IMG/VR virus record: IMGVR_UViG_2713896776_000002
Length of the DNA: 44,739 nucleotides
Reading direction: 5' to 3' (one strand)
Source of the DNA: a virus
Lineage: Duplodnaviria > Heunggongvirae > Uroviricota > Caudoviricetes
Shown: in pieces, positions 37,660 to 38,161 of the stretch
Position numbering within the stretch: position 1 is the first letter of the stretch
Layout of the letters: each line of letters starts with the position of its first letter
Program-made: the position numbers and the translations under genes
The notes under the pieces: generated by a model
What the model was told of the DNA's origin: nothing
The model's database searches: none
What the model saw: only the letters and a program-made list of their open reading frames with translations

Positions 37660-37704
37660 CAGACTTAAAATGTTAAAGGCCACCGGGGGTGAGCCGGTGG
37701 CCTT
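37660..37704 (-). terminator. Rho-independent terminator downstream of the minus-strand mini-ORF
   Basis: 11-bp perfect stem AAGGCCACCGG/CCGGTGGCCTT; on the minus strand followed by UUUAACAUUUUAAGUC. Confidence 0.5.
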
Positions 37705-37723
37705 ACTTACGTTTCCCGGTTGC

Positions 37724-37807
37724 TTACGGTAAGCAGGCCAGAATCAGCTCAATAAAGGCGACAATTGCCTTAAGAGCGATGACAGCGATTTGAAGAAATC
37801 CCTTCAT
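37724..37807 (-). CDS. 27-aa hydrophobic peptide, type I toxin-like (TisB/DinQ-like): MKGFLQIAVIALKAIVAFIELILACLP
   Basis: ATG with GGAG-containing RBS; single amphipathic helix with one Lys and one Glu; resembles TisB as recalled; terminator 20 nt downstream. Confidence 0.35.
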   Translation of the reverse strand: MKGFLQIAVIALKAIVAFIELILACLP

Positions 37808-37880
37808 CCGTTTGCTCCACTACAGGAGCGCGGCATCACCATTAAAGCCCTTCCACTGCCTGGTTAACGGTGTTGCATTG

Positions 37881-37912
37881 TTAGTGGATGCGTGACGCGC
37901 TCTGGTTGAGGC
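37881..37912. repeat. Left arm of a 32-bp perfect inverted repeat
   Basis: ttagtggatgcgtgacgcgctctggttgaggc; exact reverse complement at 38130-38161. Confidence 0.85.
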
Positions 37913-38052
37913 ACTGGAGCGGCACCACCCGTAATCCAGCCAGGGCTTGAACACGTTTCACATGCCTGCGTTGTGTCAGAACGGGACACCCACTAACGCT
38001 GTGATTATAAAGGCATCAGCAGTGTATTCAAAGGACTGGAGTAAATAACGGA

Positions 38053-38090
38053 CAAAAAAAGCCCGACTGGTGAGGTCAGGCTTTTTTCTT
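38053..38090. terminator. Bidirectional Rho-independent terminator between the inverted-repeat arms
   Basis: A7 - hairpin (gcccgac/gtcaggc, one mismatch) - T6. Confidence 0.5.
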
Positions 38091-38129
38091 TGGGTGCTTA
38101 AGGTGATGAATCTCTGTTCAAGGTAATGA

Positions 38130-38161
38130 GCCTCAACCAGAGCGCGTCACGCATCCACTAA
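38130..38161. repeat. Right arm of the 32-bp perfect inverted repeat
   Basis: gcctcaaccagagcgcgtcacgcatccactaa = reverse complement of 37881-37912. Confidence 0.85.

Follow-up and report, generated by a model that had tools for sequence, protein, structure and literature searches.

Four toxin genes of Escherichia coli, tisB, zorO, dinQ, and shoB, share a common architecture: a long, structured 5' untranslated region (UTR); a sequestered Shine-Dalgarno (SD) sequence; and, as antitoxin, a small RNA (sRNA) whose extended complementarity is aimed at the UTR (PMC4147584). The primary tisB transcript is inactive, and its sRNA, which pairs far upstream of the ribosome-binding site, competes with standby ribosomes; the zorO-OrzO duplex is cleaved by RNase III (PMC4147584). 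These sRNAs act in trans, and the genes for all four are divergent from their toxin genes (PMC4147584; PMC2887945). A cassette of similar design lies on the minus strand of IMG/VR virus record IMGVR_UViG_2713896776_000002 (Caudoviricetes), a stretch of 44,739 nucleotides (nt) referred to here, in its entirety, as the window. Positions 38198-37676 probably hold a type I toxin-antitoxin cassette, in which an upstream sRNA silences the mRNA of a 27-codon membrane toxin encoded on the same strand.

The evidence is comparative. Sixteen distinct copies were aligned, 15 of the main type plus the diverged copy L030, from E. coli, Intestinirhabdus, a Citrobacter plasmid, viral contigs, and metagenomes; some of the 16 came from pattern scans of viral and metagenome contigs. 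The open reading frame (ORF), both arms of an inverted repeat, an internal terminator, and a TATAAT hexamer occur together in all 16, in constant order and orientation. This comparison strongly supports the view that the cassette is a genuine, unannotated locus of type I toxin-antitoxin character with a structured 5' UTR, which was also the core of the original prediction. Its features, in the order of predicted transcription, are:

38170-38198, minus strand: putative sRNA promoter, TTGCAT-17-TACACT, with a predicted start at ~38163, the first base of arm R
38050-38163, minus strand: predicted antitoxin sRNA of ~112 nt, made up of a 34-nt 5' arm, a variable middle hairpin, and an intrinsic terminator
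38130-38163, minus strand: repeat arm R, TGTTAGTGGATGCGTGACGCGCTCTGGTTGAGGC, the 5' segment by which the predicted sRNA would pair
38055-38087, minus strand: sRNA intrinsic terminator, A6-GCCTGAC-loop-GTCGGGC-T6, symmetrical, which could act on both strands
38004-38031, minus strand: sigma-70-like toxin promoter, TTGAAT-16-TATAAT, with 10 of 12 consensus matches and a predicted start at ~37997
37979-37997, minus strand: toxin mRNA 5' end, GTTAGTGGGTGTC...; GUUAGUGGGUG there partly repeats the sRNA arm and, by prediction, pairs with arm L in cis and so hides the target of the sRNA
37879-37912, minus strand: repeat arm L, the predicted sRNA target in the toxin 5' UTR, 72-105 nt 5' of the AUG
37814-37829, minus strand: anti-SD hairpin, GCUCC-UGUAGU-GGAGC, which sequesters the GGAG in the predicted folds
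37724-37807, minus strand: putative toxin ORF of 27 codons, encoding MKGFLQIAVIALKAIVAFIELILACLP, a single amphipathic hydrophobic helix with the polar stripe Q6-K13-E20
37676-37704, minus strand: toxin mRNA 3' stem-loop with an 11-bp stem that includes 8 G-C pairs; terminator or stabiliser

The original prediction had described most of this layout. The minus-strand ORF of 27 amino acids (aa) is there, with its ribosome-binding site (GGAG, 37815-37818, 7 nt 5' of the ATG) and the 11-bp stem behind it. The two arms that it gave as exact 32-bp copies are indeed exact, but they extend to 34 nt. They enclose 217 nt, as stated, and the hairpin there, flanked by an A-run and a T-run, is consistent with a bidirectional terminator. 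What had been missed was the minus-strand promoter aimed at the ORF.

Paired arms and predicted transcripts

The inverted repeat in the window is perfect, with 34-nt arms set 217 nt apart; by our own estimate, the chance expectation of such a repeat in 45 kb is ~1e-13. Among the copies, the 34 arm pairs are filled with standard base pairs in 98.8% of cells without L030 and 97.8% with it. With L030 left aside, nine pairs are variable in a single arm and two in both arms. With L030 included, eight pairs are changed on both sides, in compensatory fashion. Five of these eight are contributed by L030 and lie inside the first 23 nt, where GTTAGTGGATGCGTGACGCGCT is replaced by GTTAGTTGATGAGAATCGCGCT and the UTR arm is changed to match. 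(With its five compensatory changes, L030 is a natural sRNA-target specificity pair.) None of 500 shuffles reached the observed values, and controls with slid partners gave at most 2.

The one-sided changes carry information about strand. On the toxin-sense strand, all nine of the one-sided variable pairs are G:U or U:G, whereas the other strand would have A:C; if transitions are equally likely, this outcome has P = 0.002. Over all cells, the toxin strand is paired in 98.8% and the other strand in 95.9%, with 17 G:U cells versus 2. Together, the compensatory changes and the toxin-strand wobble pattern argue that the arms are an RNA-RNA pairing element that acts on the toxin's strand, unlike a DNA recombination site or the terminus of a miniature inverted-repeat transposable element (MITE).

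The L030 arms stop matching after nt 23 and keep only 22 nt of complementarity, so that the functional core of the pairing, judged from this copy, is ~22 nt. For comparison, the complementarity of IstR-1 to its target is ~21 nt, versus 22-34 nt here. For the duplex predicted between the sRNA arm and the UTR, the free energy ranges from -67 to -77 kcal/mol across the 15 main-type copies and is -44.7 kcal/mol in L030; the co-folded pair of RNAs reaches -206 kcal/mol, versus -124 for the mRNA alone and -38 for the sRNA alone. Extensive complementarity to the toxin mRNA, as expected of a type I antitoxin RNA, is found; that this RNA is a separate transcript is suggested by its conserved promoter and terminator. 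One arm pair, 25:10 (window 38139 and 37903), toggles between U:A and A:U among copies and forms a hot spot within an otherwise nearly invariant duplex.

The terminator hairpin between the arms has a core of 7 pairs, to which A:U pairs are added, and then a tract of 6-8 U. It is kept in all copies; the L030 stem differs (CCCGGC/GCCGGG), with the hairpin and U-tract retained. The toxin promoter stands ~25 nt beyond. Its TATAAT is invariant in the 16 copies, the -35 hexamer reads TTGAAT, TTGATT, or TTGCTT, and the spacer varies. Because this terminator and promoter are kept between the arms in every copy, including the diverged L030, two separate transcripts from the same strand are likely: an sRNA of ~112 nt (38163-38050) and a toxin mRNA of ~330 nt (~37997 to 37670). 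The inverted repeat had indeed been offered, among other possibilities, as an sRNA locus, and toxin-strand covariation together with the conserved terminator and promoter favours that choice.

At the sRNA promoter the hexamers are invariant, and the spacer differs in copies L013, L015, and L020. Copies L008 and L030 have unrelated upstream DNA, yet show TTGCCA-17-TAAACT at the same distance from the arm. An alignment-based fold of the sRNA leaves its 5' end unpaired. When Rfam was run in E-value mode over the locus, only sub-threshold matches appeared, to STnc40, the Thr leader, OrzO-P, and AgrB; those on the sRNA strand, OrzO-P at 24.5 bits (gathering threshold 60) and AgrB at 19.2 (gathering threshold 40), are no evidence by themselves. 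An antisense RNA from the plus strand was considered and rejected: the promoter scan gave nothing above threshold on the plus strand, and the wobble pattern points to the minus strand.

Could both arms instead belong to a single read-through transcript, forming a 34-bp stem in cis that RNase III cleaves or that closes off the 5' UTR, with no separate antitoxin? Covariation cannot separate cis from trans pairing; the arms lie on one strand, 217 nt apart, and any read-through RNA would fold in this way, the only setting in which the long RNA hairpin first proposed for the repeat is possible. The cassette also lies downstream of two genes in the same orientation, for a 114-aa protein and an RHH protein. 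This arrangement is nevertheless unlikely. It leaves a conserved terminator standing between the arms, kept even in L030, where its stem sequence is changed, and behind it a conserved promoter with 10 of 12 matches. It also does not account for L008 and L030, which differ upstream and still have a promoter-like site exactly at the arm, or for another terminator-like hairpin upstream of the cassette:

38289-38314, no strand assigned: perfect 12-bp stem, CAAAGGCGCAGA/TCTGCGCCTTTG, each strand of which weakly matches Rfam STnc40; probably terminates the 114-aa gene that lies upstream

With the sRNA taken as a separate transcript, the toxin mRNA would have a 5' UTR of 190 nt. The helix between its 5' end and arm L appears in both single-sequence and alignment folds, and L030 changes both partners together. 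At the place of the anti-SD hairpin, L030 has CUUCU/AGAGG, so that the structure is kept despite the changed sequence. The start codon lies inside a further hairpin, on which the single-sequence and alignment folds agree. One-sided changes preserve the pairs of all three helices (5' end with arm L, anti-SD, and start codon). The only candidate for a mok- or tisA-type leader, a 44-codon GTG ORF that ends in the SD hairpin, was rejected; it is truncated to 17 codons in nine of 15 copies and frame-shifted in L008.

The peptide and its relatives

The ORF is unbroken in all 16 distinct copies. Among 15 copies, the changed sites are ten synonymous and two conservative (I/L and V/I), against an expectation of 71.5% non-synonymous (P = 1.3e-4); some copies were retrieved by peptide-based patterns, which biases these counts, and restricted counts were computed as well. 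Copies retrieved without a peptide pattern gave seven synonymous changes to two (P = 0.003). In L030, the most diverged copy, whose peptide is MKAFLKIAVVALKALVAFIELILACLP, codons 1-17 were unconstrained by the search pattern, and 11 of their 15 nucleotide changes are synonymous (P = 4e-4). An ORF that is intact in all copies, with substitutions almost all synonymous, is by this comparative measure a genuine coding gene under protein-level selection.

It is also a gene that annotation has missed. Neither RefSeq, in the three carrier genomes that were examined, nor the PLSDB gene table, for the Citrobacter plasmid, lists the ORF; nothing is annotated beneath the locus match in any of the nine matching complete E. 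coli genomes. An exact look-up of three peptide variants, including the exact peptide, in a collection of 15 billion proteins found none of them. In the phage GenBank collection, neither the peptide (tblastn) nor the region (megablast and blastn) had a match.

The 27-aa peptide has a grand average of hydropathy of 1.93, a hydrophobic moment of 1.14 (TisB, 1.18), and a net charge of +1. It has the properties by which type I toxins are recognised: fewer than 60 aa, hydrophobicity, one predicted transmembrane helix, and coding constraint. Its sequence was compared with K-12 TisB, DinQ, and ShoB, taken from the annotated genome, through alignment z-scores against shuffled peptides. It shares 10 of 25 positions with TisB (z = 5.0), and scores z = 4.5 with DinQ and z = 2.7 with ShoB; TisB and DinQ score z = 4.6 with each other. 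By this measure, the peptide is about as close to TisB and DinQ as those two are to each other.

Resemblance to tisB/istR-1 extends beyond the peptide. Both encode a short, amphipathic single helix (27 aa here, 29 aa in TisB), in which the polar positions Q6/K13/E20 align with D5/K12/Q19 of TisB. Both have a long, structured 5' UTR whose 5' end hides the sRNA target, and in both the sRNA pairs not over the ribosome-binding site but ~100 nt upstream of it (PMC4147584). The TisB-likeness noted in the original prediction thus stands as resemblance; family membership does not. The peptide is not matched by the TisB hidden Markov models (HMMs; PF13939/TIGR04459/NF011340), whereas the same NCBIfam search scored K-12 TisB at 69.6 and 59.9 bits. 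No LexA box (CTGT-N8-ACAG, at most one core mismatch) occurs in 37600-38320, as had been reported. IstR has no Rfam match in the locus at E values up to 10, and there is no divergent IstR-like gene. The predicted sRNA gene here lies upstream on the toxin strand, whereas that of IstR-1 is divergent; this is why the DNA shows an inverted repeat. Moreover, the cassette is on a mobile element, whereas tisB occupies a fixed chromosomal locus beside ilvB. Because HMM match, LexA box, and IstR match or divergent sRNA are all missing, we conclude that the cassette, as far as its sequence tells, works like tisB/istR-1 without being a member of the TisB family, and represents a new arrangement.

With the other E. 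coli systems, dinQ/agrB, zorO/orzO, and shoB/ohsC, the cassette shares the toxin class and an antitoxin complementary to a long 5' UTR rather than to the start site (PMC4147584; PMC2887945); it differs in that the sRNAs there are divergent (PMC4147584), that no UTR or sRNA sequence homology exists, and that the cassette here is portable. Systems of the hok/sok type likewise have a membrane toxin on a mobile element, control by an antisense RNA, and an mRNA folded into a translation-blocked form until rearranged, but here the antitoxin does not overlap the toxin gene and no leader ORF is conserved. The likeness to type III ToxIN-like systems is superficial: an RNA gene, a terminator hairpin, and a toxin on one strand (PMC4147584). 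Here, by contrast, a 27-aa hydrophobic peptide takes the place of an RNase, the RNA does not consist of tandem repeats, the toxin has a separate promoter, and control would operate through base-pairing with the mRNA. The same-strand upstream sRNA sets the layout apart from the four E. coli trans-acting loci named in the 2014 review (PMC4147584), and an inverted repeat around a terminator and a promoter could serve as a search rule for further loci.

Many small hydrophobic proteins are non-toxic regulators, and it might be asked whether this one, too, is a non-toxic membrane protein under RNA regulation, an accessory factor of the mobile element that, for instance, excludes superinfection, times lysis, or modulates a host membrane protein, with the pairing tuning its level. 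The cassette is carried in phage-derived elements, and Fozo et al. (PMC2887945) describe a polar or aromatic cluster at the C terminus of many type I toxins, which this peptide lacks. The idea is rather improbable, however, for an architecture that is that of tisB, zorO, dinQ, and shoB (PMC4147584), a peptide as near to TisB and DinQ as reported above, and an ORF that is accompanied by both arms in 16 of 16 copies.

Copies, mechanism, and points on the other side

The cassette region matches nine of 5,426 complete E. coli genomes. Identity between copies of the element that carries it (described below) is highest over 38214-37660, at 96% versus roughly 84-92% elsewhere in the element, and homology between element copies breaks at 38214, just upstream of the sRNA promoter. 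In L008 and L013 the cassette stands behind a baseplate gene from a different kind of phage; L030 has the sRNA-side flank of L008. A scan of GTDB species representatives with the adjacent gp27-like protein as query returned one relevant locus only. These findings indicate that the cassette is a conserved portable unit, running from window 38198 to 37676 on the minus strand. In copy L019, ~1.85 kb (5236-7082) is inserted directly after the toxin stop codon, and the 3' stem-loop is replaced.

Constant orientation bears on a further possibility, an invertible DNA switch, with 34-bp recombination sites that flip the 217-bp promoter segment and turn the ORF on or off. A repeat that brackets a promoter does recall invertons of the fimS type, and the repeats of the Mu G segment are 34 bp, equal to the arm length. 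All 16 distinct copies, from independent assemblies, nevertheless show one orientation; the element encodes no invertase or recombinase; the one-strand RNA wobble pattern is not expected of DNA recombination sites; and L030 retains only 22 nt of complementarity. By eye, the arm is unrelated to the gix/hix consensus. A switch of this kind is very improbable. A MITE-like insertion, as first suggested, or a chance structure, namely a 285-bp repeat-bounded unit beside a fortuitous short ORF, has terminal inverted repeats around a short non-coding segment in its favour but can be all but dismissed, since the arms have no flanking target-site duplication, co-vary, and, in the proposed search for further copies of the arm (the 5,426 complete E. 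coli genomes plus viral contigs), occur nowhere outside the cassette, and the ORF is under purifying selection.

If the cassette is a type I system, it could work as follows. Transcription of the sRNA would begin at the first base of arm R (~38163) and end at the terminator (38087-38055); the strong promoter ~25 nt further on would drive the ~330-nt toxin mRNA. The primary transcript, with its 5' end folded onto arm L and its GGAG locked in the small hairpin, would be translated poorly by its own structure. Arm L, at 72-105 nt before the AUG, would be bound by the first 22-34 nt of the sRNA, a pairing supported by covariation. By analogy with IstR-1/tisB and zorO-OrzO (PMC4147584), this would block a ribosome standby or entry site, make an RNase III substrate, or both, and the peptide would not be made while the sRNA is present. 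The peptide MKGFLQIAVIALKAIVAFIELILACLP presumably would insert in the inner membrane as one amphipathic transmembrane helix and dissipate the proton-motive force. Sequence evidence thus supports the regulatory pairing, whereas toxin activity at the membrane and the biological role are suppositions drawn from it. With low confidence, that role may be stabilisation of the element, or abortive infection when host transcription, and hence the sRNA supply, collapses; such roles are favoured because the cassette occupies a cargo slot of a helper-dependent element and is present in a second phage lineage.

Several points weigh against the type I reading, in addition to the retrieval bias in the synonymous counts. 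The two transcription starts, the sRNA itself, and the translation of the ORF are predictions from sequence. The sRNA promoter is weak, with 7 of 12 consensus matches, and on the toxin strand the U-tract of the hairpin 3' of the ORF is poor. Rfam at its gathering threshold gave no match anywhere in the window, and no toxin model in Pfam (E up to 1) or NCBIfam (E up to 10) matched the peptide. Most copies are closely related, so that the double-sided changes apart from L030 represent only two events. Finally, pair 25:10 is an internal mismatch in several natural copies, U:U or U:C (MS 115-1, L021, the Citrobacter plasmid copy, and VREC0864), and the full 34-nt pairing is therefore dispensable.

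The carrier element

The cassette stands in the left-arm cargo region of a larger element that occupies the end of the window:

36986-44739, no strand assigned: BcepMu-like non-autonomous transposable element of 7,754 bp, with the ends TGATTAGAC...GGTGGATCA (TG...CA)

It is marked as a BcepMu-like derivative by its TG...CA termini, by short target duplications at sites that are unrelated to each other, and by proteins homologous to those of Bcepmuvirus. Duplications of 6 bp flank it at five independent insertion sites, one of them in an IncF conjugative plasmid of Citrobacter. In the E. coli genomes, the element interrupts a lambdoid major capsid gene (AW1.7) and a PTS EIIC gene (VREC0864) and lies between sbmC and dacD (MS 115-1). 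The copy in the window splits a prophage head-tail gene. The literal position given in the original prediction, inside the structural module, therefore holds, but the context does not: the cassette is cargo of an inserted element. The empty site, with an uninterrupted head-tail gene, is found in PapRG-04-4, and at least 80% of the left flank occurs in 1,033 complete E. coli genomes; the window's own insertion junction occurs in no complete genome.

Altogether, the element occupies chromosomal genes, late genes in two different prophages, and an IncF plasmid, and the cassette also occurs in the second phage lineage. Such mobility contrasts with PMC2887945, which describes type I loci as not spread by horizontal transfer.

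The nine annotated genes of the element include no transposase, no ATPase, and no full virion gene set, any of which would be expected of an autonomous element. They encode a Mu gp27/small terminase (TerS) N-terminal domain, an RHH protein, a DUF3102 protein, Mor, a homologue of the N-terminal half of a head-maturation protease, and a tape measure protein. The last is 70.6% identical to that of Escherichia phage PhiKM (Bcepmuvirus) and 32-34% identical to those of BcepMu and phiE255. Partial or diverged copies of helper virion proteins, the only structural homologues in the element, are encoded at 37126-37470, 40932-41546, and 42174-44651: the TerS N-domain has 114 aa versus 181 aa in PhiKM, and the protease N-half has 204 aa versus a profile of 415 positions, whereas the tape measure protein is full. 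This partial set recalls satellites that divert packaging or the assembly of capsids.

A full-length relative exists. In E. coli Ecol_542 (L031, 20001-40091), a full-length BcepMu-like prophage encodes a DDE transposase, an ExeA-family ATPase, Mor, a DUF3486 TerS, and a portal protein, and its terminal 92 nt are 78% identical to the left end of the element. Matches to this prophage end occur in 147 E. coli genomes, many of them within disrupted genes. Such full-length prophages are candidate helpers. Tentatively, the carrier might be a mini-BcepMu phage satellite of 7.6-7.9 kb that is moved by the DDE transposase of a helper and packaged in helper virions; its toxin/sRNA payload would then serve for abortive infection or addiction, set off once infection stops transcription in the host. 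No description of a Mu-like or BcepMu-like satellite, or of a mini-BcepMu, was found in the literature searched, which is not proof that none exists. The carrier may be a new helper-dependent mobile element, and it may be more novel than the cassette.

A sister element (L028, 20001-27800), inserted in ybhJ of E. coli KCJ3K291, shares the backbone of DUF3102 protein, Mor, protease-N homologue, and a 197-aa protein, and has a longer tape measure protein. Where the TerS N-domain and the cassette stand here, it carries an unrelated 318-aa gene that has no Pfam or PADLOC match. This different gene at the cassette's place suggests that the left arm is a swappable cargo slot. PADLOC run on the neighbouring proteins of the cassette returned nothing meaningful and no known defence family.

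Some minor observations concern the element as a whole. Three 19-bp operator-like repeats (AAGTGATAA-N-TTATCA), spaced by 35 bp and overlapping two promoter-like sites, lie at 38808-38896, between the 114-aa ORF and the RHH/HicB-like gene; they are probably the repressor operators of the element. The metagenomic copy L019 has lost large parts of the backbone, leaving an element of 5,092 bp with its 6-bp duplication still present. The window ends exactly at the right end of the element, and one IMG/VR contig (L011, 7,799 bp) is exactly one element. At the other end, window positions 1-60 have their match in AW1.7 directly beside an IS1A copy (L001, 247-306); because of this match, the window probably is a draft contig bounded at both ends by repeats.

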